Assembly: GCA_050260015.1 (NCBI GenBank)
Contig: JBLNBN010000022.1
Location: 23,290 to 87,289, forward strand
Source of the DNA: Chloroflexota bacterium
GTDB taxonomy: Bacteria > Bacteroidota > Ignavibacteria > Kapaibacteriales > UBA2268
Length of the DNA: 64,000 nt
Reading direction: 5' to 3'
Positions 30,701-54,052 of the stretch are shown piece by piece (the first letter of the stretch is position 1; each line of letters begins with the position of its first letter). The notes beneath the pieces were generated by a model. The model saw only the letters and a list, made by a program, of their open reading frames with translations. It was not told where the DNA came from and did not search any database. A program made the translations under genes and the position numbers.

Positions 30701-32482
30701 TTATTTATAATCGTAATCCTGGGCCAGAAGCATGCGAACGAGCTTTACAGCCTCTTCCGTTTCGCCGTCGATGTAGGTCTCTACCTTGTTCTTGATCTCG
30801 AGCTTCATCATCGTGTCCTCGGTCAATTCCGCGGTGTCGGATTCGCCATAGGCGGAGCCGCGGGTCGCTAAGGAACCGGTAGAGCCTTCAAGGCTCAATC
30901 CTTCGCCGGAATCGTCGCTATTGTAGTACTCGCGCTCGCCTTCCAGCAGGAGTTGTTCGGGGAGGTCCGCGGGCAATAGGGCGAGCCCGTCCTTCATTTC
31001 AAAGTCGTCGAACGCGTCGAAGTTCTCTTCCTTCTCTTCCTCGAGCAGAATATCCTCGGCGACCTTGTCGTCGTCTATCGAGACCTTGGCGGGCAGGGAC
31101 AGGGCGATGCGGACGCGTTCCTTTATGTGCCTGGAGCTGAACAGCCTCCACATGATAAGCATGGCCATCAGCATCGCTACGGCCAGCGCTATTAGCTTTT
31201 GATTGCCGGGCTTAGTCCACCAATCCACCGGCTTGGAATCCTCGAGCTCCTGCTCCTGCCAGCTCGCGTCGAAGGGCACGTTTAGAACGGATATCTGGTC
31301 GTTGCGGTTCGGATCGTAACCGACGGCGTTCTTCACGGCAAGATCGAGCTGGTCCATCTCTTCCTTAGGACGGGGAATATACCTGAGCGATTTAACGCCC
31401 TGCCCGTTCTCGACCACCTTGTTGGTCCCGTTAACGAGCACGGAAACTGAAAGTCTCTTAACGTTGCCCACGCCCTGGATGATATGCTCTACCGTTTTGG
31501 ATATTTCATAATTCGAAATTACGTTGGATTGATCTTTGCTCTGGTTTACAGCCGGGTAGCTCAAGGAATCGGAGGAAACGCTTCGCTCCTGCAGGTTTTG
31601 CTCGCTGCGAATCACCTGCCTTTCCGGGTCGAAATCGGTGCGGGTCTGTTCGATCTTAGTAAAATCGAGATCGGCGTTGACGCGAACGGCCGCGTTGTCG
31701 GGCCCGACGACGCCGTTTAGAAGGGTTTGAACTTTATCGGCAATGTAACGCTCGACTTTCTGCTGCTGCTCGTGTTGGCTGGCCGTAAGCCCTGCGACGG
31801 AATTTTCGTCGAGCGCGGCTTCGCTCAGGGCTTTTCCCCGAGAGTCTATTATCATTACGTTATCGGGGGACATGCCCTCGATCGAGCTTGCGACTAAATT
31901 TTGTATGCCGCGCACGGAGGAGCGCTGAAGCGTCCTACCGGATTTCAGGTGAAGCGCCACGGAGGCCGTGGGCGGCTTTTCGTCTTCCTTGAATAAAGTT
32001 TTCTCCGGGGTGACTATATGTACGCGGACCTTTTTAATTTCCTCGATGGAGCCTATCGTCTTTTGAAGCTCGCCTTCGAGCGCGCGCTGGTGATTCAGCT
32101 TTTGAACGTACTCGCTCATGCCTAAATTGGCCTGGTCGAAGAGCTCGTAGCCGACCGTGCCGGAGCCGGGCAGCCCTTCGCCGGCCAGGGCTATGCGCGC
32201 TTCGTAGAGCTTTTCCCTGTCGACCATAATTCGCGAGCCGTTGTCCTCGAGTTGGTAGGCAATTTTATTTTCTTTTAGGTAATCTACGATTTTGGCGGCG
32301 TCCGCGCCTTCGACTTCGGAGTAAAGCGTACCGTATTCCGTCTTGTCGCCGGAGAGCGCGACGAGCAGGAGAATTACTCCAACGCCGAGCGCTACCGTGA
32401 CGATTAAGGCCGAGACCTTTTGCGCCGTAGATAATTTTCCGAAGAATCCCTTCGCCTGTTCGATTATTTTTCCGTTTGCCAT
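30701..32482 (-). CDS. fliF: Flagellar M-ring protein
   Basis: 593 aa. N-terminal TM helix, YSEVEGADAAKIVDYLKENKIAY, GLPGSGTVGYELFD, second TM helix near residue 440, acidic C-terminus. Confidence 0.9.
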   Translation of the reverse strand: MANGKIIEQAKGFFGKLSTAQKVSALIVTVALGVGVILLLVALSGDKTEYGTLYSEVEGADAAKIVDYLKENKIAYQLEDNGSRIMVDREKLYEARIALAGEGLPGSGTVGYELFDQANLGMSEYVQKLNHQRALEGELQKTIGSIEEIKKVRVHIVTPEKTLFKEDEKPPTASVALHLKSGRTLQRSSVRGIQNLVASSIEGMSPDNVMIIDSRGKALSEAALDENSVAGLTASQHEQQQKVERYIADKVQTLLNGVVGPDNAAVRVNADLDFTKIEQTRTDFDPERQVIRSEQNLQERSVSSDSLSYPAVNQSKDQSNVISNYEISKTVEHIIQGVGNVKRLSVSVLVNGTNKVVENGQGVKSLRYIPRPKEEMDQLDLAVKNAVGYDPNRNDQISVLNVPFDASWQEQELEDSKPVDWWTKPGNQKLIALAVAMLMAMLIMWRLFSSRHIKERVRIALSLPAKVSIDDDKVAEDILLEEEKEENFDAFDDFEMKDGLALLPADLPEQLLLEGEREYYNSDDSGEGLSLEGSTGSLATRGSAYGESDTAELTEDTMMKLEIKNKVETYIDGETEEAVKLVRMLLAQDYDYK

Positions 32483-32517
32483 TGGCGCTAGCCGAGAATT
32501 TTACAAAAATGAGGAAA

Positions 32518-32817
32518 TCAGATGGGTAGCCGCAATACTTCGCGGTAGAGCTCGAGACCTTTGTTTCTCAATTCCATTAGCAATTGGAAGCTGGTCTTGG
32601 CTTTTTCCGCCGAGATCATAACGTCGTGGATGTCGACCGGTTCGCCTTTAATAAGGCTTTCAGTTAAGCCGGCGGACTCTACCTGCATAGAGTTGACGTC
32701 GGAGATCAGCTCGCCGAGCGCGTCCGCAAAGCTTGCCCCCTGGGGCGAGTTTTGCTCGACACGCGGATCGAGCAGCGGCTTATATTTATTCGATTGATCT
32801 AATTCAGATATTTTCAT
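32518..32817 (-). CDS. fliE: Flagellar hook-basal body complex protein FliE
   Basis: SFADALGELISDVNSMQ...DIHDVMISAEKAKTSFQLLMELRNK. The ATG at 32815-32817 is preceded by AAGGAG with a 6-nt spacer, and the longer TTG start (32841) contains that RBS. Confidence 0.88.
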   Translation of the reverse strand: MKISELDQSNKYKPLLDPRVEQNSPQGASFADALGELISDVNSMQVESAGLTESLIKGEPVDIHDVMISAEKAKTSFQLLMELRNKGLELYREVLRLPI

Positions 32818-32871
32818 TTCGAACTCCTTTCGAAAAGGCAAATCCTTTGCAAAGAAAAAGAACGATCCGCA

Positions 32872-33174
32872 TTACGCAAGACCGTCGAGCAACACTCCCT
32901 TGGCGGCGTAAGCCGGTTGAAGCCTGCCGTTACGGTTAAATATCACGTGATTTTGAATTCTCTCGCCGCTCTCCGGGAACAGCTTAACGAAGAAGTCCCG
33001 TTCGGGCTTCGAGATAATCTGTTGCGGGTTCTCAAGCCAGGAACGATCGGGAGCGGCAGCGCTTTCGGACTGCAGCGCGCCGGCGGTCGTTTTCCTTGTT
33101 GTCGCAGTTGAAGCGGCCTGCGAAGCCGAGTTTACGTATGGTTGCCTGTAGGCGTTTAGGGCTTGTACTTTCAT
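32872..33174 (-). CDS. Hypothetical 100-aa protein inserted between flgC and fliE
   Basis: ORF MKVQALNAYRQPYVNSASQAAST...ISKPERDFFVKLFPESGERIQNHVIFNRNG. No family recognised. Its coding status rests only on position, orientation and length. Confidence 0.45.
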   Translation of the reverse strand: MKVQALNAYRQPYVNSASQAASTATTRKTTAGALQSESAAAPDRSWLENPQQIISKPERDFFVKLFPESGERIQNHVIFNRNGRLQPAYAAKGVLLDGLA

Positions 33175-33207
33175 TCTTAGTCCAGTATTTTATTCCGTTT
33201 TCCAAAT

Positions 33208-33223
33208 TGCAATTATCAGACCA
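33208..33223 (-). promoter_or_regulatory. Candidate sigma-54 promoter (-24/-12) upstream of the 32872-33174 ORF
   Basis: The minus strand reads TGGTCTGATAATTGCA, with GG and GC at the canonical 12-nt register (consensus TGGCACG-N4-TTGCW). The -12 GC lies ~35 nt upstream of the ATG. Confidence 0.4.
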
Positions 33224-33265
33224 AATTGCGCTATTCGTCAAAAACTTTTCAACAATTCCGTAAAG

Positions 33266-33751
33266 CTATATCTCAAGCGCGTTTCGAGCCATTCCCTTGG
33301 CGGCCTCGACCACCTGCGTATTGGCTTCGAAGGCGCGCTGCGCCGTAATCATTTCCACCATTTCAGTCACTACGTTAACGTTGGGCATCTTTACGTAGCC
33401 GTTTTCGTCCGCCTCGGGATGCCCGGGCTCGTAAACGAGCCGAGGGGGAGTGTTGTCGAAAGCAGTCCTGGCCTTTAGAACGGAAACTTCCGGGGGATAG
33501 TCGCCGTTGCGCGCGGCCTGCCCGTGCTCGGCGGAAGTCCTTTCCATCGGCAATTGCGCCTGCATAGCGCGTTCGAACGGGGTGTCGGGCGCGGCCCTAA
33601 CTACGACGACTTCGCGCTTGTAGGGCTCCCCGTCGGGGCCTTTCGTCACGTTTGCGTTAGCGATGTTTCGCGCCGTCGCCGAAAGCCGCATGCGCTGCAC
33701 GCTTAAGCCTTGTCCGCTGATCGCGAACGATGAAAATATGTTTTCAGCCAT
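33266..33751 (-). CDS. flgC: Flagellar basal-body rod protein FlgC
   Basis: SGQGLSVQRMRLSATARNIANANVT and C-terminal VNVVTEMVEMITAQRAFEAN. Confidence 0.92.
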   Translation of the reverse strand: MAENIFSSFAISGQGLSVQRMRLSATARNIANANVTKGPDGEPYKREVVVVRAAPDTPFERAMQAQLPMERTSAEHGQAARNGDYPPEVSVLKARTAFDNTPPRLVYEPGHPEADENGYVKMPNVNVVTEMVEMITAQRAFEANTQVVEAAKGMARNALEI

Positions 33752-33823
33752 TTTAACCGCTAATTTTTAACTTATAAAACTATTAGTTATTGCGCCGCTA
33801 ATGCCGGCCAGGCCGGCTCGCCG

Positions 33824-34249
33824 CTAGTAATTGCCCGACCCGGTAATCGAGGAGCTCAGCCCCTTGAAATACTTCCCCATCATCTGGGAAGCGAAACGAT
33901 ACTTGATTTGATTCTGCGCGAGCGCGGACATTTCCTTATCTATATTCACGTGCGTCTCGCCGGAGAAATAGATTTCAGGCTCCGGCACGGCGGCGTCAGT
34001 TTTTTCGGCGGATACAGCTTCATCGTTTATCCTGCCGATCGGGATGCTCTCGCCTTCGCTCTGGGCGCCGCTTAAAACGACCTCTCCCTCGTCGAAGAGC
34101 TCCTCGAACTTCACGGCCTCGGGCCGGAAGTGCGGGCTGTCCGCGTTTGCGATATTGCGCGACGCGACCTGCTGCCGGAGCGAATATGCGCCAAGCGCCT
34201 TGCTCATTAGGGGAACTCTCTCCCCGAATAAATGATCCTTGAATATCAT
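33824..34249 (-). CDS. flgB: Flagellar basal-body rod protein FlgB
   Basis: YSLRQQVASRNIANADSPHFRP and C-terminal IDKEMSALAQNQIKYRF. AGGAAG RBS lies upstream. Confidence 0.9.
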   Translation of the reverse strand: MIFKDHLFGERVPLMSKALGAYSLRQQVASRNIANADSPHFRPEAVKFEELFDEGEVVLSGAQSEGESIPIGRINDEAVSAEKTDAAVPEPEIYFSGETHVNIDKEMSALAQNQIKYRFASQMMGKYFKGLSSSITGSGNY

Positions 34250-42835: not shown

Positions 42836-43180
42836 ATGACACTTAAAAATGAACTCGCTCATATCGGTTCGCCGGAGTGCTCGCTTGCGGCGCTCGGATT
42901 CCCGAAGGAAGCTTTTGACATCCTGCCCTTCTTTGCCTTCGGCGAAGGAATTGCATTGGACTACATCGCTATCCGCAGCCAGAAGGAAGACGAATTCGAA
43001 GAAGATTTCGACGACGATCTCGACGACGATGAAGAGTTTGACGACGACGAAGAATACCTGGACGATGAAGAGTTTGAGTTGGACGACGAAGAATTGGAAT
43101 ATGACGAACCCATAGAAGAAGAATTCGAAATCGACGACGACGAAGAGGAACTCGAGGACGAAGAGGACGAGACCCCGTAA
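42836..43180 (+). CDS. Small, extremely acidic protein: ~48-aa N-domain plus ~65-aa D/E tail
   Basis: MTLKNELAHIGSPECSLAALGFPKEAFDILPFFAFGEGIALDYIAIRSQKEDEFEEDFDDDLDDDEEFDDDEEYLDDEEFELDDEE.... AGAGGAAG RBS, with a hairpin plus T-run downstream. Confidence 0.6.
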   Translation: MTLKNELAHIGSPECSLAALGFPKEAFDILPFFAFGEGIALDYIAIRSQKEDEFEEDFDDDLDDDEEFDDDEEYLDDEEFELDDEELEYDEPIEEEFEIDDDEEELEDEEDETP

Positions 43181-45358: not shown

Positions 45359-45380
45359 AATTTTCGACTTATAAAAAATA

Positions 45381-45408
45381 AGAAGCCCCGCCGGATAGCG
45401 GGGCTTCT
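45381..45408. terminator. Bidirectional rho-independent terminator (zupT / pepD convergent)
   Basis: Perfect 11-bp stem agaagccccgc / gcggggcttct, 6-nt loop, an A-run before and T-rich sequence after. Confidence 0.8.
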
Positions 45409-45432
45409 TTGCTATAATAACAGATTATAACG

Positions 45433-46902
45433 TTACGCTTTGGGAGCTTCGGGAATGTTCTCAAGAATGCCCAAAAGCAAGCGCCAGATCCTCTGCGTGC
45501 TGGAGATCTGGATCATCTCGTCCGGCGAGTGAACGTCCTTTAAGTTCGGACCGAATGAGAGCATATCCATGCCCGGGTATTTCTCGCCGATAAGGCCGCA
45601 CTCGAGACCGGCGTGTATCGCTTCGATCTTGGGCTCATGGCCGTACTGCGATTTGAAGACGCCCTTCGCCATATTGAGTATCGGCGAAGCAACGTTGGGC
45701 TCCCATGCCGGGTAGCCGTCGCCGGAGGTTACTACGGCGCCGCCGAGCTCGAAGGCGAGCTTAACCATTTGGCCCATGTGCATCTTCTCGCTTTCGACGG
45801 AGCTGCGCTGGCTCGTTAGAACATATACTTCAGCTTCGCGGGTTTCGACGATAGCGAAGTTGGTCGAGGTTTGAACTAAGCCTGCGATATCGGGGCTCAT
45901 ACGCATAACGCCGTGCGGGCATACGTAGAAGCTCATCAGGAGGCGCTTCTGGAATTCTGCGTCCATAACGCGCGAGACGTTCCCGGCGGCTTCAGCGGAA
46001 ATCATTAAATTCGGCTCTTTCGTGCGGTACTCGATTTGAAGCGTTTTATTAAACTCTTCGACGTATTTGTTGAAATCTACCGCGGAGCCTTCAGGAACGG
46101 TAATAGTGGCGAACGCTTCGCGCGGAATGGCGTTGTGCTTGTTGCCGCTGTTGAAGTCGGAGAGCGAGATATGGAACATTTCGGTCAGGTTCCAGAGCAA
46201 CCGGGTCATAACCTTTGCGGCGTTTGCGCGACCGTCGTGGATCTCGATGCCGGAGTGCCCGCCGCGCAATCCTTTAACGGAGAGCTTGAAGGCCTTCGAG
46301 CCGGGATGAGCTTCGCCGGCCTTGTAGGCGTAGCTGGCGGCGGTGTTGAGCCCGCCCGCGCACCCGATGGTGAAGGCGCCGTCCTCTTCGGAGTCGAGGT
46401 TGATCATGATCTTAGCCTGCAGCAGGTCCGTACCGAGCTGTTGCGCGCCGGTTAAGCCGGTTTCCTCGTCGAGCGTGCAGAGCAATTCAATCGGGGGGTG
46501 CTTAACGCCTTCGGCGGTCATAGCGGCCATACCCATAGCGATGCCGATACCGTTGTCGGCGCCGAGCGTCGTTCCGCGGGCCTTTATCCAATCGCCGTCG
46601 ATATAGGGTTGGATCGGGTCGTTGTCGAAATCGAATTCGACGTCGCTGTTCTTCTCGGCGACCATGTCGAGGTGGCCCTGTATCGCGACGGGAGTGCGGT
46701 TTTCGTAGCCGTGCGAGGCCGGCTTGCGAACGACGACGTTGCCTAACGCGTCTCTTTGCGATTCAAATCCCTGTTCCTTTGCCCAATTGACCATAAATTC
46801 AGCGATGCGCTCTTCCTTTTTCGAGGGGCGCGGCACTTGCGTAATCTGCTCAAAATACTCCCAAACGAGAGCCGGTTCGATGCCGGTTAATATCTTAGCC
46901 AT
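45433..46902 (-). CDS. pepD: Xaa-His (aminoacyl-histidine) dipeptidase, M20C family
   Basis: LEPALVWEYFEQITQVPRPSKKEERI, HLDMV, LGADNGIG and LDEETGLTGA. Confidence 0.88.
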   Translation of the reverse strand: MAKILTGIEPALVWEYFEQITQVPRPSKKEERIAEFMVNWAKEQGFESQRDALGNVVVRKPASHGYENRTPVAIQGHLDMVAEKNSDVEFDFDNDPIQPYIDGDWIKARGTTLGADNGIGIAMGMAAMTAEGVKHPPIELLCTLDEETGLTGAQQLGTDLLQAKIMINLDSEEDGAFTIGCAGGLNTAASYAYKAGEAHPGSKAFKLSVKGLRGGHSGIEIHDGRANAAKVMTRLLWNLTEMFHISLSDFNSGNKHNAIPREAFATITVPEGSAVDFNKYVEEFNKTLQIEYRTKEPNLMISAEAAGNVSRVMDAEFQKRLLMSFYVCPHGVMRMSPDIAGLVQTSTNFAIVETREAEVYVLTSQRSSVESEKMHMGQMVKLAFELGGAVVTSGDGYPAWEPNVASPILNMAKGVFKSQYGHEPKIEAIHAGLECGLIGEKYPGMDMLSFGPNLKDVHSPDEMIQISSTQRIWRLLLGILENIPEAPKA

Positions 46903-46912
46903 TCAATCACCT

Positions 46913-47269
46913 TTATAATTCTTTAAAATTTATAAAACCGTTCTTGTAGAGTTGCGTAAGGAATGCGGTGAGGCGGTCGTAGACGGGCTCGATTTCCTCG
47001 CCGAATCTCGCGCGTAGCGTTGCGGCGATAGCGTCGACGTTGTTTTTACCGTCGATGAGCTCCCACGCCGCGCTGCCGAGCGCGTCCAGGTTGGCTTTAA
47101 TGTATTTATTCCGCAGCCGCGGCTGAAGCAGCTTGCCGAAGACCTTGTCGGTAAATCGCGGGACGAGCACGTCAATCAGTCCCTTTTCGTTTAGTTCGTG
47201 CTCATAGAGCCGATTTGGAGTGAGTTCCAGGTAGTTAATATCCTCGCCCTTCTTCTTCTTTGCAAGCAT
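46913..47269 (-). CDS. PqqD-family (RiPP-recognition-element-like) small protein
   Basis: The pattern ANLDALGSAAWELIDGKNNVDAIAATLRARFGEEIEPVYDRLTAFLTQLYKNGFI follows the PqqD winged-helix pattern. Confidence 0.65.
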   Translation of the reverse strand: MLAKKKKGEDINYLELTPNRLYEHELNEKGLIDVLVPRFTDKVFGKLLQPRLRNKYIKANLDALGSAAWELIDGKNNVDAIAATLRARFGEEIEPVYDRLTAFLTQLYKNGFINFKEL

Positions 47270-47327
47270 AGATTTTTGCCAACTTTTTTAAAACATTAGA
47301 AAATGCAATTTATTAAAATTTTATAAC

Positions 47328-48779
47328 TTAACCTAATAATTCTTTTCTGCTTACGCCGATTGGCGAAACTCCGCCCGAGGGCCTGAGCATGTAAGTTAAG
47401 TAGCAAAATGCGTCGACCTGGTCGTCGTGGGCTCCGTTCGGAAATGAAAGCAGCTCGCTTTCGAACGTATCGAGCCAATCGGCCTCCTTCAACAGGTAAA
47501 CCGTACCGGCTTCCACCCGGGCGGCCATATCGAGCGAGCGGGCGAACTTGTCGCCTTTCGGCCTTAAATCCTTTACGGGTAGCCCGGCCCGGCGCGCGCT
47601 CTGTACGAGCGACAGCTGGTATTGTGAGCTTTCTACGCCAATCGCCGACGGCGCCCAATCGTCAAATATTTTCTTTAAAAACTCGAGATGGTCGGCAGCC
47701 TCGAGTTGGAGCCGAATCATCTTAAGCAGCGCAATTTCCCCTTTCGGGGCGATCGCGGCCACGGCGCAAGCTGTGTAATCGTTTCGCTCGCCAATTTTTA
47801 CCGCCAGGTCCACAGCGGCGATTATTTTGCATTCGCCGAGCGAAACGGGGGCGAACCCTCCGGCAGTATCCAAGAGGCAGCCCGGCGAGAGCAGTCGTAT
47901 GACGCTCCCTTCCGACTCGAAGTACCGCAGGTCCTTCCTTCGGAACGCGGCGCCCGAGCGCGGCTGCGGCGACTGCTGGTACATAGCCTCGAACCAATAC
48001 GAGCCGAGCTCCGCCCGGAATTCGCCAAGCTTATCCTCGTCGAACCGCTCCGGCCAAAGCGCCCGGCCTTCTTCGCGGCCCAGCGGATCGTTCTTTGAGG
48101 CGAAGGCGGGCAACGAAAGCGCCTTCCACTTATCGCCCCTTTTAGCGAGCTCGCCGGCGAGGTCGTCCTCGCTCCAGCGCGTCATAACGAGTATGGCCGC
48201 TCCGTTCGGTTCGAGCCTGGTGTAGGCGGTGCTGCGGAACCAATCGAGCAGCCCGCGCATAAAGTCGGGTTTATGCAGCCGTAAATTATTCTTTATCGGG
48301 TCGTCGATTATCAGCAAGTCGGCCCCGCGCCCTGTAATGGAGCCACCGGCCCCGACGGCGAACATTCCTCCGCCGTAATCCTTAAGCGCGAATTCCCCGG
48401 CGCGGCGCGAGCCGCGTTTCAATTCGAGCGAGAGGCGCTCCCCGCTCTCTTCTATTATATCGCGAACCGAGCGTGAAAAGTTGCGCGCAAATTCCGCGGC
48501 ATAAGAAATTAATATAATTCTCCGCTCGGGGAAGAGCGTCAGGTACCAAACGGGGAAGTACTTGGAAATAAATTCTGATTTGCCGTGCCTTGGCGGTATA
48601 CTAATTATTTGAAAGCGTTCGGCCCCGGCGGCGAGCTCCGCAAGGCGAATCCCGAGAAACTGTAAATGCTTCGCAGGGCGCCACCTGCCCCCGCTTAGCT
48701 CCTTCGCTAATGCGGCAGGCTGCGCAAACTCGCTCTCCCTGCCTGCGAGGAATATCCCTTTTTTGCTATAAGTTTTCAT
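47328..48779 (-). CDS. Phage terminase large subunit (TerL)-like ATPase-nuclease, orphan copy
   Basis: 483 aa. Walker A-like PPRHGKSEF, Walker B ADLLIIDDP, MTRWSEDDL coupling motif, and a C-terminal RNaseH-like nuclease with IIAAVDLA ... GAHDDQVDAF. Uninterrupted ORF. Confidence 0.75.
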   Translation of the reverse strand: MKTYSKKGIFLAGRESEFAQPAALAKELSGGRWRPAKHLQFLGIRLAELAAGAERFQIISIPPRHGKSEFISKYFPVWYLTLFPERRIILISYAAEFARNFSRSVRDIIEESGERLSLELKRGSRRAGEFALKDYGGGMFAVGAGGSITGRGADLLIIDDPIKNNLRLHKPDFMRGLLDWFRSTAYTRLEPNGAAILVMTRWSEDDLAGELAKRGDKWKALSLPAFASKNDPLGREEGRALWPERFDEDKLGEFRAELGSYWFEAMYQQSPQPRSGAAFRRKDLRYFESEGSVIRLLSPGCLLDTAGGFAPVSLGECKIIAAVDLAVKIGERNDYTACAVAAIAPKGEIALLKMIRLQLEAADHLEFLKKIFDDWAPSAIGVESSQYQLSLVQSARRAGLPVKDLRPKGDKFARSLDMAARVEAGTVYLLKEADWLDTFESELLSFPNGAHDDQVDAFCYLTYMLRPSGGVSPIGVSRKELLG

Positions 48780-48859
48780 TTCCGCCTTTTTTACGGAAAA
48801 TTACAGCGGACTGCGGGACATCCCAAATAAATATTTAATAGGATTGATCCTGCGCTTAT

Positions 48860-49168
48860 CTATTTCTCGGTTTGCCGAGAGGCGCGGTTGCGGATAGTAT
48901 CCATCATGCGAATAAAATCGTCCTTGTCCTGCGCGAATTTTATAAATTCTTCGCGGAAACTCTGCTCGGTGAAGCCGTTCTTCTGAAGAATTTTTTGAAC
49001 CTCTTCTTCGGCGCGAAGGGAATCCGAGTGTAATTCGCGGGCGATTAAAACTTCCTGGTATATTCTCATAAAGCGTTCACGGTCGCGATTTGCGTCCGCG
49101 CACGCAACGACTATGACGACTCCGATTGCCAGGGCAGCCGTCAACAAAACTTTTTTGCTTATTCTCAT
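48860..49168 (-). CDS. Small exported helical protein (102 aa), unknown function
   Basis: The internal ATG at 49166-49168 gives MRISKKVLLTAALAIGVVIVVACAD (signal/lipobox), then a charged helical region. The longer ORF-track start overlaps the upstream gene. Confidence 0.5.
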   Translation of the reverse strand: MRISKKVLLTAALAIGVVIVVACADANRDRERFMRIYQEVLIARELHSDSLRAEEEVQKILQKNGFTEQSFREEFIKFAQDKDDFIRMMDTIRNRASRQTEK

Positions 49169-49233
49169 CGTTTTCCTTTTACTTTCGCAAAAAGCAAATT
49201 TAATTATTCTGCGGCAACGAGGCAAGCTTTTTT

Positions 49234-50550
49234 TCATATAACCTGCATGGAGCCTTTTTGCCAGAAGAACTTCTCGCCTTCGGCAGGACGAAGTTCCGAG
49301 ATCCACACAGCTTTCGGGTCATATTTTGCGAAAAACGGTATATTGACCATTTCCGGGTCGCGCGCCTGCGTAAAATGCATAGCCATGCGCTTTTCACCCG
49401 CTATTTCGGCGACGCCGTCAAAAATAATCTTACCCGGAGCGGCGGACATAGTCGGTCCGCGCGCCGTTCTGCATAATCCGCTTACTGACGATTGAGCTTC
49501 CTTGAATATTTCCCAGGCCCGCTCGAGCGGCACGGAAAAGTAGTGGTTGGGGCCCGTATCGCGCGCGACAAAGAAGTAATAGGGTACCATTCCAAGAATA
49601 ATTTCGCTGCGCCATTTTTCCGCCCAGAGGTCCGCGCTGTCGTTTATGCCGCGGAGCACGGGCGACTGCGTTCGTATTTGGGCGCCGGAGCTCAATATTC
49701 TCTTAACGGCGGCGTGCGCGGCCGGCGAGGACAGCTCGCAGTGGTGATTGACGTGCGCCATTATAGAAAGGTGCAGCCCCCTCTTACCGATGGATTCGAA
49801 ATAGCGGAGGTAATGGTCCGTGTCGGGATCGGAAAGAAATTTATATGGCCAGTAAGTAAGCGCCTTGGTGCCGATACGTATAGTTTTTATGCACGTCCTG
49901 GCAATATTGTTGAGTATTGGATCGAGGAATTCGGAGAACCGTTTAAAGTTCATTATCAAAGGATCCCCGCCGGTGATCAGTAAATCGACTATTTCCTTAT
50001 GCTCGATTAAATATTCGAGTATAAGAGAGGAGTCCTTTGCGGAGAACTTTTTCTCCGGCATAGAGGTAAATTGGGGCCACCGGAAACAGAAGCTGCAAAA
50101 GGCGTGGCAACTCTGCCCATGAGCGGGAAAGGCGAGGGCAGTTTCACGGTATTTGTGCTGAATTCCCTCGAGAGGCGCGCCCCGGAAACGCGGCACGTTG
50201 AGCTCTATTTGAGATGCCGGATGGGGATTTAATTTAAGTCGTATTTCGTGGACTAAATTCTCCGCCGCCGCGCTCATGCCTGCGGCGCGCAACTTCGAAA
50301 GCTCCGTAAAATCGCCGACGGAAAGCATATCCCTGCGTGGAAAGGTCATGGCGTAGATCGGGTCCTCGGCGTAATTTGCCCAATCGATGAGGTGCTCGGC
50401 GACGTAGTTGTTTACTTTAAAAGGCAACACTTGCGAGACGATCTCTATCGCTCGCTTCTCGTGCTCGTCGACGTTCACCATTTGCGGCATAAGCCGGAAA
50501 TTTCCCGCGTTGTAGGCGCGGTACTTTACCGGGGGATAAACTGGCTTCAT
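49234..50550 (-). CDS. KamA-family radical SAM protein (lysine-2,3-aminomutase-like)
   Basis: CHAFCSFCFRW (CX3CX2C), LITGGDPL, IRIGTK and SPVLRGIND, in the KamA family order. Confidence 0.8.
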   Translation of the reverse strand: MKPVYPPVKYRAYNAGNFRLMPQMVNVDEHEKRAIEIVSQVLPFKVNNYVAEHLIDWANYAEDPIYAMTFPRRDMLSVGDFTELSKLRAAGMSAAAENLVHEIRLKLNPHPASQIELNVPRFRGAPLEGIQHKYRETALAFPAHGQSCHAFCSFCFRWPQFTSMPEKKFSAKDSSLILEYLIEHKEIVDLLITGGDPLIMNFKRFSEFLDPILNNIARTCIKTIRIGTKALTYWPYKFLSDPDTDHYLRYFESIGKRGLHLSIMAHVNHHCELSSPAAHAAVKRILSSGAQIRTQSPVLRGINDSADLWAEKWRSEIILGMVPYYFFVARDTGPNHYFSVPLERAWEIFKEAQSSVSGLCRTARGPTMSAAPGKIIFDGVAEIAGEKRMAMHFTQARDPEMVNIPFFAKYDPKAVWISELRPAEGEKFFWQKGSMQVI

Positions 50551-53668: not shown

Positions 53669-54052
53669 TTAATTCATGGAAAGAAAAATCGTATTGCGGG
53701 AGCCCTTGATTGATTCAATAATGCTTAAGAACTCTACCCACTTCGTCTTGAAGACTTCCCAACTTTCGTGGAACGCCTCCGGATCGTCTTCGTATATATC
53801 CCAATTCTGCTGAACAATGCTAAAATAAAACATCAATTCCTTTTTGTTCGTCTCCTGTCTTTGCCCCGTGATTAATATATCGGGAAGAAGATTCAGCACT
53901 TTCCGCATGAATTTGAATATTTCGCTAATTGTATTGTATATTGTATCGCTTAGCGTTGTATTCTTCTTCAATATAATTGTCAAATCCGAAGTGGACTTAA
54001 CTATCGTGTTTATCAGGTTCATCTGATTGTCGAACGTTATATTCGTATTCAT
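53669..54052 (-). CDS. Orphan hypothetical protein (127 aa, predicted all-helical) in an AT-rich island
   Basis: ORF MNTNITFDNQMNLINTIVKST...WEVFKTKWVEFLSIIESIKG. Its codon usage is visibly A/T-biased, unlike all neighbours, and no family is recognised. Confidence 0.5.
   Translation of the reverse strand: MNTNITFDNQMNLINTIVKSTSDLTIILKKNTTLSDTIYNTISEIFKFMRKVLNLLPDILITGQRQETNKKELMFYFSIVQQNWDIYEDDPEAFHESWEVFKTKWVEFLSIIESIKGSRNTIFLSMN

Follow-up and report, generated by a model that had tools for sequence, protein, structure and literature searches.

A lone terminase large subunit gene in a Kapaibacteriales chromosome and its possible place in a dispersed, gene transfer agent-like packaging system

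A Terminase Large Subunit Gene among Cellular Genes

A stretch of 64,000 nucleotides of contig JBLNBN010000022.1 (assembly GCA_050260015.1, positions 23,290 to 87,289; GTDB lineage Bacteroidota, Ignavibacteria, Kapaibacteriales, UBA2268), referred to here as the window and numbered from its first nucleotide, was analyzed with respect to a gene for a terminase large subunit (TerL), the endonuclease and translocase that uses ATP to move DNA through the portal into HK97-type phage capsids. The gene is part of a string of five open reading frames (ORFs) that lie head to tail on the reverse strand in the order KamA-like, 102-aa ORF, TerL, PqqD-like and pepD, with gaps of 65, 80, 58 and 10 nt (table 1). 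An earlier note made from the sequence alone had described this string, with coordinates that were confirmed here, and had raised the idea that the first four genes work as one system; a domesticated packaging ATPase/nuclease, for example of a gene transfer agent (GTA)-like kind, and a stranded prophage remnant were its other options.

The product of 47328-48779 is a true terminase large subunit that has all defining sequence and fold features of the family. It matches the Pfam models Terminase_6N (3.9e-10) and Terminase_6C (7.3e-08), each of which exceeds its curated cut-off, the NCBIfam model TIGR01630 (57.9 bits, cut-off 41.65) and phrog_38, annotated as terminase large subunit (5.9e-100, residues 33-470). 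The motif set listed in the earlier note can be read directly in the translation: the N-terminal ATPase domain of the ASCE class carries a Walker A motif (PPRHGKS, residues 62-68), a Walker B motif (LLIIDDP, 155-161) and a coupling motif (TRW, 200-202), and the C-terminal RNase H-like nuclease domain carries D324, E383 and HDDQVDA (451-457). The three ATPase motifs as well as D324, E383, D452, D453 and D456 are invariant in an alignment of 34 TerL proteins of the family. Overall, 57 columns including these motifs and acidic residues are invariant across all 34 sequences, and the window TerL retains 57 of the 59 columns that are invariant among the other 33. No stop or frameshift interrupts the 1452-nt ORF, and the set of catalytic residues is complete. 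A sequence search of the Protein Data Bank (PDB) returned only weak N-terminal matches, in which the Walker A and B motifs align to those of the T7-like TerL structures 8dgc and 4bij, and a fold search was therefore needed. The AlphaFold2 model (mean predicted local distance difference test score 86.3, predicted template-modeling score 0.79) confirmed a full-length, two-domain TerL, the top Foldseek matches being full-length solved TerLs (PhiV-1, D6E, T4 gp17, HK97 and Sf6) with E values from 7.6e-22 (PhiV-1) to 1e-12; TerL nuclease domains and RuvC were also found. The two-domain fold and the catalytic motifs are thus shared with phage TerLs such as T7/PhiV-1 gp19 and those of D6E, T4, HK97 and Sf6, but these are encoded beside a small terminase and a portal gene in a phage genome, whereas the window TerL stands alone among cellular genes.

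Within approximately 15 kb of the TerL gene the recognizable genes are cellular, encoding FliF, a metallophosphoesterase, pantothenate kinase, a nucleotidyl transferase, response regulators, a PAS-histidine kinase, a ZIP transporter, a GH20 protein, a polyprenyl synthase, a Bax1-I protein and a TonB-dependent receptor, and the unannotated neighbors over the same distance have no PHROG match. The earlier statement that no phage genes lie within 15 kb extends to the whole window: no ORF in the 64 kb apart from the TerL resembles any ORF on 80 TerL-bearing contigs of IMG/VR or a protein of the head module (see below). A prophage hidden in or just beyond the gene string and membership in a phage or prophage packaging module were both rejected as no portal, capsid or other phage-like ORF is present in the window. 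An integrative island or phage satellite was likewise rejected, given the lack of an integrase, an adjacent tRNA gene or flanking repeats and the cellular nature of all neighbors. The only tRNA genes in the window are located at 15.7 and 29.0 kb, at least 18 kb from the TerL gene, and a search for att-like repeats bracketing the gene identified only short repeats at chance level. In its codon usage the gene resembles those of the host (rank 11 of 51 window genes, GC content at third codon positions 0.68), in agreement with the impression recorded in the earlier note. Host-like codon usage together with the absence of att repeats and of an adjacent tRNA gene suggests long residence or adaptation of the gene to its host.

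All conspecific contigs that extend upstream of the PqqD-like gene carry the TerL gene at this position (10 contigs from 10 sequencing runs), and the uninterrupted 483-aa ORF is present in the four conspecific contigs that span the gene (L085, L086, L087 and L089) and also in L090. The gene is fixed in the population of the window species.

Lone TerL Genes Are Vertically Inherited in Related Genomes

Homologous loci were collected from 185,579 species-representative genomes (80 loci) and from IMG/VR (80 loci) and supplemented with individual contigs; flanks of up to 10 kb per side were included, and about two dozen loci of the clade that contains the window TerL have at least 9 kb on each side. 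More than 3000 TerL homologues exist, the best of which are 47-48% identical to the window protein, and the closest deposited phage TerL (MW202426.1) and the best IMG/VR contig reach 38.7% and 42%, respectively. In a neighbor-joining tree the window TerL groups with TerLs of metagenome-assembled genomes (MAGs) assigned to the Kapabacteria, Ignavibacteria, Chlorobiota and the Fibrobacteres-Chlorobi-Bacteroidetes (FCB) group, several of which are located on megabase-scale contigs. In distant clades (Dehalococcoidia, Paenibacillus and archaea; L053-L084) the TerL gene belongs to ordinary prophages and is followed by genes for a portal (phrog_113 or phrog_12) and a head-morphogenesis protein. Among the loci of the window clade, 39 of 45 have no head-module gene in the flanks covered, and most have no neighbor that resembles any ORF on the 80 viral contigs. 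The neighbors in this clade include glycosyltransferases, proteins sorted by the type IX secretion system (T9SS), RmuC, YchF and a SIS isomerase, among others. Of the two parts of a refuting condition set in the earlier note, confinement of the homologues to recognizable prophages does not apply, and absence of a conserved linkage to KamA or PqqD genes does (see below).

A recurrent chromosomal site was identified in six deeply diverged genomes (L015, L017, L023, L024, L027 and L042), where a divergently oriented gene for a family 2 glycosyltransferase with tetratricopeptide repeats (GT2/TPR) lies 76-101 bp upstream of the TerL gene; a GT2/TPR gene is found nearby in other genomes. Genes for a family 4 glycosyltransferase (GT4), RmuC and YchF recur downstream, resulting in a GT2/TPR-TerL-GT4-RmuC-YchF synteny. 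TerL identity and GT2/TPR identity are strongly correlated (r = 0.93 over 45 pairs, near-identical pairs included), with mean identities over these pairs of 45% for TerL and 41% for the GT2/TPR neighbor. Synteny and co-divergence with cellular neighbors in these relatives indicate vertical descent. The ratio of nonsynonymous to synonymous substitution rates (dN/dS) was calculated for pairs of orphan TerLs in the same context and is low in each case: 0.086 for L024/L027 (dS 0.59), 0.18 for L020/L026, and 0.09 for L007/L070 and 0.03 for L006/L028, the last two being near dS saturation. The 45-locus set contains no stop-interrupted TerL, and one member (L025) lacks the N-terminus. A TerL outside this set that looked broken (L039) is not a pseudogene, as the record has a run of N at this position. 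Decaying and incomplete prophages tend to lose their terminase genes preferentially (PMC7744054), and the widespread occurrence of intact orphan TerLs therefore calls for an explanation. Taken together, synteny and substitution patterns indicate that the window clade consists of chromosomal TerLs that are mostly lone, vertically inherited at fixed sites and under purifying selection.

Two further observations concern relatives of the window TerL. A 46%-identical TerL in a 5.9-Mb genome (L003, 4601-12879) lies in an island with an integrase, HTH_17, a DUF3631 protein that is possibly primase-associated, two small ORFs, the TerL and an integrase fragment; the island has no capsid genes and resembles a phage-satellite-type element. 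In addition, many MAGs titled "uncultured Hyphomicrobiales bacterium" carry a TerL that falls within the window clade of the tree (L005, L008, L010, L025, L030, L033, L034, L049 and L071), and the Hyphomicrobiales labels of these records may be wrong.

A Compact Head Module in the Same Bacterial Group

In five loci of the window clade (L013, L014, L018, L029 and L031) the TerL gene ends a compact head cluster, and a portal gene is present in three of these (L013, L014 and L029). A search of metagenome contigs with a capsid alignment identified 33 loci, among which the gene order of the head module is strongly conserved. The module is a compact, co-directional cluster of approximately 6-7 kb that encodes, in this order, a protease, the HK97-type major capsid protein, a cement protein, a Mu-Gp36-like adaptor, a small membrane protein, a CHAP protein, two to three small proteins and the portal (examples in table 1). 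The annotation is based on PHROGs and Pfam (major head protein, phrog_1005, 7.9e-91; portal, phrog_113, 6.2e-90; a cement/scaffold-like protein of 113 aa, PF09956/phrog_673; head-tail adaptor, phrog_195/Mu Gp36).

The position of the TerL gene relative to the module varies, and intermediate arrangements connect the lone TerL genes with the modules that lack one. No TerL gene was found in the 3.5-10 kb flanks of portal-ended modules in at least ten loci (L188, L193, L194, L197, L199, L204, L209, L210, L211 and L216, with L202 repeating the arrangement of L199). The TerL gene adjoins the portal gene in L013, L014, L029 and L200, is divergent from the protease gene in L191 and lies directly upstream of the protease gene in L219. 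On one contig (L060) the TerL gene and the portal end of the module are 8 kb apart with T9SS-type genes between them. In L218 (13783-15141) a TerL pseudogene directly follows the portal gene, its reading frame broken by two stops at about residue 216, and this module may depend on a TerL encoded elsewhere.

Neither integrase nor replication genes accompany the head module, which lies between housekeeping genes: the module of L210 is flanked by FliM, cytochrome bd oxidase I/II (cydAB) and a chemoreceptor on one side and by a DUF6994 protein and an epimerase on the other, and that of L193 by DnaB and adenylosuccinate lyase. The modules of L210 and L211 share one chromosomal site (the upstream layout of L211 is equal by ORF length, with cydAB 96-98% identical). 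Between these two loci, dS is 1.07-1.16 for the protease, capsid and portal genes compared with 0.88-1.12 for the flanking cydAB genes, and omega is 0.06-0.09 for the protease, capsid and portal genes and 0.2-0.35 for the small proteins. Only three short matches to the capsid family of the module were found among the 2.9 million contigs of IMG/VR, in one of which a TerL gene lies directly upstream of the protease gene. These patterns indicate that the head module is vertically inherited, under purifying selection and usually without an adjacent TerL gene. A single ancestral cluster of TerL and head genes appears to have been pulled apart repeatedly, with both parts staying under selection.

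A Possible Dispersed Packaging System and Its Alternatives

The comparative data favor one option of the earlier note, the domesticated GTA-like packaging ATPase/nuclease, but not the linkage to KamA and PqqD. The window TerL is quite possibly a packaging enzyme that has been retained to act in trans for a dispersed GTA-like element, a reading that we prefer but hold tentatively. Separated from all other phage genes, the TerL would serve capsids produced by a head module at another place in the genome: it would dock on their portal and translocate DNA into them, the CHAP and small membrane proteins would provide for particle release, and the whole would constitute a host-maintained, dispersed, GTA-like (viriform) system. 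More doubtful, although possible, is the wider proposition that the Kapabacteria/Ignavibacteria keep an undescribed GTA-like viriform composed of a head-lysis module of approximately 6-7 kb and a TerL at separate sites, both inherited vertically and under purifying selection, with the window TerL as its motor. The activity of the window copy, the presence of a head module in this organism, the cooperation of TerL and module and the production of particles are what we infer from related genomes.

Several points weigh against this interpretation. No head-module gene was found for the window organism in a search confined to the 64-kb window, and the pairing of TerL and module in the same genome is anecdotal (8 kb apart in L060, adjacent in L013, L014 and L029). 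No small terminase candidate is evident, GTA-like particles are not known from this bacterial group in the open-access full text searched, the simple neighbor-joining tree has no support values, and most TerL pairs show saturated dS. The window TerL is also set apart from its relatives. It has no close orthologue (best identity 48%) and lies away from the GT2/TPR-linked site of many of them. As no close orthologue exists, selection on the window copy has to be judged from the relatives and from five single-nucleotide polymorphisms (SNPs) in the population (three synonymous and two nonsynonymous), which are too few to decide dN/dS. The dN/dS analysis proposed in the earlier note thus gave low values for relatives (0.03-0.18) but was uninformative for the window copy itself, in which synonymous sites are saturated relative to the nearest relatives (proportion of synonymous differences about 0.83). 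Finally, 11 of 108 family-conserved residues are replaced (S102, L168, K170, M174, L178, S203, E210, M266, L284, A337 and L429 in the window protein), which places it among the four most divergent of the 34 aligned TerLs. Four replacements cluster just past the Walker B motif (A168L, S170K, R174M and W178L), with H203S and R210E in addition; S170 and F284 are otherwise invariant and R174, W178, H203 and R210 near-invariant. The replacements could reflect relaxed constraint or a changed partner or interaction surface.

Many of these points would also be expected of an inert but still-open relic, the last piece of a decayed prophage or capsid-forming element whose reading frame is intact by chance or because of a recent origin. 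This is a serious alternative, although we consider it less probable than the preferred reading: the missing partner genes in 64 kb, the missing close orthologue, the 11 replaced residues including the invariant S170 and F284, the two nonsynonymous SNPs among five and the chromosomal site unlike that of relatives all agree with it, and decayed copies do exist in the family (L218 with two in-frame stops, L025 without its N-terminus). A relic does not readily account for 1452 nt without a stop or frameshift in which the catalytic residues are all kept, for the lack of stop-interrupted TerLs in the 45-locus set or for the low dN/dS of orphan pairs, and prophage decay normally removes terminase genes early (PMC7744054). 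Host-like codons and the absence of insertion scars speak against a recent arrival, if weakly, as a phage of the same host could be host-like as well. An unlikely alternative is exaptation as a stand-alone ATPase-nuclease that acts independently of capsids, for example in anti-phage or anti-plasmid defense through interference with incoming packaging, or in DNA processing or repair. Purifying selection on orphans without capsid genes nearby would fit such a role, as would the DNA-metabolism neighbors of some relatives (RadC and RmuC in L004, a Schlafen-like ATPase and RtcB near L001) and the changed surface residues past Walker B, which could follow a change of partner. Against this, the neighborhoods of clade TerLs are heterogeneous (mostly glycosyltransferases and secreted proteins) without a recurring defense partner, and the selected head modules without a TerL that these taxa carry explain the pattern more directly. 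A known defense system was rejected, since PADLOC-DB v2 gave no defense match for the TerL, KamA-like or small-ORF proteins and only a chance-level BrxC match (E 0.0053) for the PqqD-like protein. We know of no described stand-alone TerL defense system, and literature searches found none.

It is very unlikely that the TerL belongs to an unrecognized mobile element whose partners are too divergent to detect, such as a minimal satellite that carries only a TerL. The integrase-bearing island around the relative in L003 and the widely differing TerL contexts across genomes are compatible with such an element, but neither an integrase nor a tRNA target nor flanking repeats are present in the window, the immediate neighbors of the gene are conserved cellular genes, and synteny and co-divergence in relatives favor vertical descent. 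Capsid-forming phage-inducible chromosomal islands (cf-PICIs) are satellites that move horizontally and form compact chromosomal clusters of capsid, protease, portal, adaptor and packaging genes without tails. Such satellites carry integrase, regulatory and replication genes, whereas the head modules described here have no integrase, are flanked by housekeeping genes and diverge together with them, and the window has none of the satellite genes.

The favored reading, a dispersed GTA-like packaging enzyme, has its closest parallel in Brachyspira, where a single conserved terL outside the BhGTA (VSH-1) cluster is the proposed, experimentally unvalidated packaging enzyme (PMC9662315). As in the present group, the gene is found at a distance from the capsid genes, has been conserved throughout its host lineage and differs from known phage TerLs (PMC9662315). 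The hosts differ (Spirochaetes compared with Kapabacteria/Ignavibacteria of the FCB group), the two TerLs belong to unrelated lineages (Terminase_6/phrog_38 here), and TerL identity is 41-48% within the present clade but 81-100% in Brachyspira. Furthermore, neither particles nor gene transfer are known for the present group, and its structural module is seen in contigs of relatives and not within the 64 kb of the window. The "genome" of the RcGTA of Rhodobacter capsulatus is spread over five loci (PMC5026251) and consists, similarly, of phage-derived head and packaging genes that are kept by the host, inherited vertically and under purifying selection, without integrase or replication genes (PMC5026251). 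In contrast to the situation described here, the RcGTA terL (g2) lies inside the main head-tail cluster, this cluster is approximately 15 kb and includes a full tail while the module of 6-7 kb has no recognizable tail tube or tape measure, and the protein families are not the same.

No description of orphan or domesticated terminases or of GTAs in the Kapabacteria/Ignavibacteria was found in the open-access full-text literature. If the pattern holds, it would suggest that a tailed-phage packaging machine has been domesticated independently for a fourth or fifth time, here in a phylum-level group without a reported GTA and with an unusually small and split architecture. It would then be the second case, after Brachyspira, of a terL kept apart from the capsid genes, a testable route of horizontal gene exchange in abundant, mostly uncultured environmental bacteria, and a natural system for studying how portal and DNA substrate are found by a terminase that has no small terminase encoded beside it. 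A lone "phage terminase" match, a widely used prophage marker, would give false prophage calls in these taxa. If the gene is a relic instead, it is an ordinary prophage remnant and its KamA/PqqD neighborhood a coincidence. The weight of the finding rests on the pattern across the clade and not on the original KamA/PqqD framing.

The Neighboring Genes Do Not Form a Conserved Unit with TerL

Table 1. Positions of the window genes and of representative head modules (e.g., L210) in related contigs
Feature	Record	Position	Strand	Evidence
Terminase large subunit (TerL), 483 aa	Window	47328-48779	-	Pfam, NCBIfam, PHROG, AlphaFold2/Foldseek
PqqD-like (RRE-type) small protein	Window	46913-47269	-	Pfam PqqD PF05402, 1.2e-11
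M20-family dipeptidase, pepD-like	Window	45433-46902	-	Pfam Peptidase_M20, M20_dimer
Predicted lipoprotein, 102 aa, signal sequence ending VVAC, then helical	Window	48860-49168	-	DUF4296, 0.0048, below cut-off
KamA-family radical-SAM protein, 438 aa	Window	49234-50550	-	TIGR00238, 7.4e-33, 113.9 bits (cut-off 199.2)
Intrinsic-terminator-like hairpin, 3' of pepD	Window	45380-45409	-	13-bp stem, 8 G-C pairs, T-run
Head module	L210	9073-14908
Head module	L211	9073-14910
Head module	L209	9121-14907
Head module	L193	3382-10747
Head module	L014	1688-8601

The labels that the earlier note gave to the neighbors of the TerL gene (PqqD-like, KamA-family and small exported helical protein) are upheld, with the qualification that the KamA models score below their cut-offs. 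The KamA-family radical S-adenosylmethionine (SAM) protein matches only KamA-family aminomutase models (TIGR00238, TIGR03822 and TIGR03820), all of them below cut-off. It has about 8000 homologues at E <= 1e-10, including proteins of Saprospiraceae, Sphingobacterium, Anaerolineae, Thiobacillus and Nitrosotenuis, and the best 120 are 51-56% identical. The protein is probably an uncharacterized aminomutase-type enzyme. Its stand-alone clade spans the Bacteroidota, Chloroflexota, Proteobacteria and Thaumarchaeota, and most of its members have no precomputed Pfam match.

The organization of the string was compared with that of homologous loci in other species by tblastn, and the block does not recur outside the window species. 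No homologue of the KamA, PqqD or small-ORF protein was found beside the TerL gene in any of 167 loci of other species (up to 10 kb per side). The PqqD-like protein has homologues of 50-70% identity in Kapabacteria MAGs, and in all eight loci from other Kapabacteria its gene lies 2-6 nt upstream of an orthologous M20 dipeptidase gene (62-70% identity); in the window, pepD begins 10 nt past the PqqD-like stop codon. The genes further upstream vary (a GWxTD protein, a PBP-like protein or ribosomal proteins L31/S18), and neither TerL nor KamA is found near the pair in any of the eight. KamA homologues of 52-56% identity stand alone in the three loci examined (L100-L102, from at least two genomes), homologues of the 102-aa ORF were found only in contigs of the same species and none beside other TerL or KamA genes, and in MAG JBAYPL01 the TerL (L021) and the PqqD-pepD pair (L185) are on separate contigs. 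Synteny thus points to PqqD-pepD as the conserved unit and to the adjacency with TerL and KamA as a lineage-specific accident of gene order.

The idea that the KamA-type radical-SAM enzyme, the exported protein, TerL as effector and PqqD as chaperone form one system is, given these counts (0 of 167 TerL, 0 of 8 PqqD and 0 of 3 KamA loci), highly improbable. The arrangement in the window itself agrees with it: all five genes point in one direction and are separated by no more than 10-80 nt, the hairpin after pepD is the sole convincing terminator across the string, and the gene block is identical in every conspecific contig that reaches it. Conservation inside one species, however, does not allow a statement on function, and AT-rich spacers lie before both the TerL and the PqqD-like gene, each of which could therefore have its own promoter. 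A scan for promoters and terminators that does not cover FCB-type promoters gave site counts no different from those of shuffled sequences.

A peptide-modification system of the PqqD/radical-SAM type was also rejected. The PF05402 protein (of the type of the recognition element, RRE, of ribosomally synthesized and post-translationally modified peptides, RiPPs) and the radical-SAM protein are encoded within 3.3 kb on the same strand, as in RiPP systems, but the enzyme is KamA-type and not SPASM/PqqE, the two genes are unlinked in every other genome examined, and the partner of the PqqD-like gene is the M20 dipeptidase. No RiPP precursor peptide was identified in the ORF listing, the only place searched for one. 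In every Kapabacteria locus examined a PqqD-fold protein is encoded 2-10 nt upstream of an M20 dipeptidase with no radical-SAM gene nearby in loci other than the window (window 45433-47269 on the reverse strand, L095, L097, L099, L183, L184 and L185, among others). The pairing of a PqqD-like protein with a peptidase is unusual, and the PqqD-like protein may deliver peptides to the peptidase.

Three further features of the window were recorded. A 127-aa ORF on the reverse strand (53669-54052), the AT-rich island of the earlier note, has a GC content of 37% compared with approximately 52% for the genome, has no PHROG match and occupies the same place in the conspecific contigs L085 and L086. A 114-aa ORF on the forward strand (42836-43180), also without a PHROG match and present in conspecific contigs, encodes a protein in which the C-terminal two-thirds are nearly all Asp and Glu. 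A flagellar cluster on the reverse strand (30701-34249), in which FliF was identified by Pfam and small rod/hook-basal-body-like genes by eye only, indicates that the host is a flagellated member of the Kapabacteria/Ignavibacteria group.

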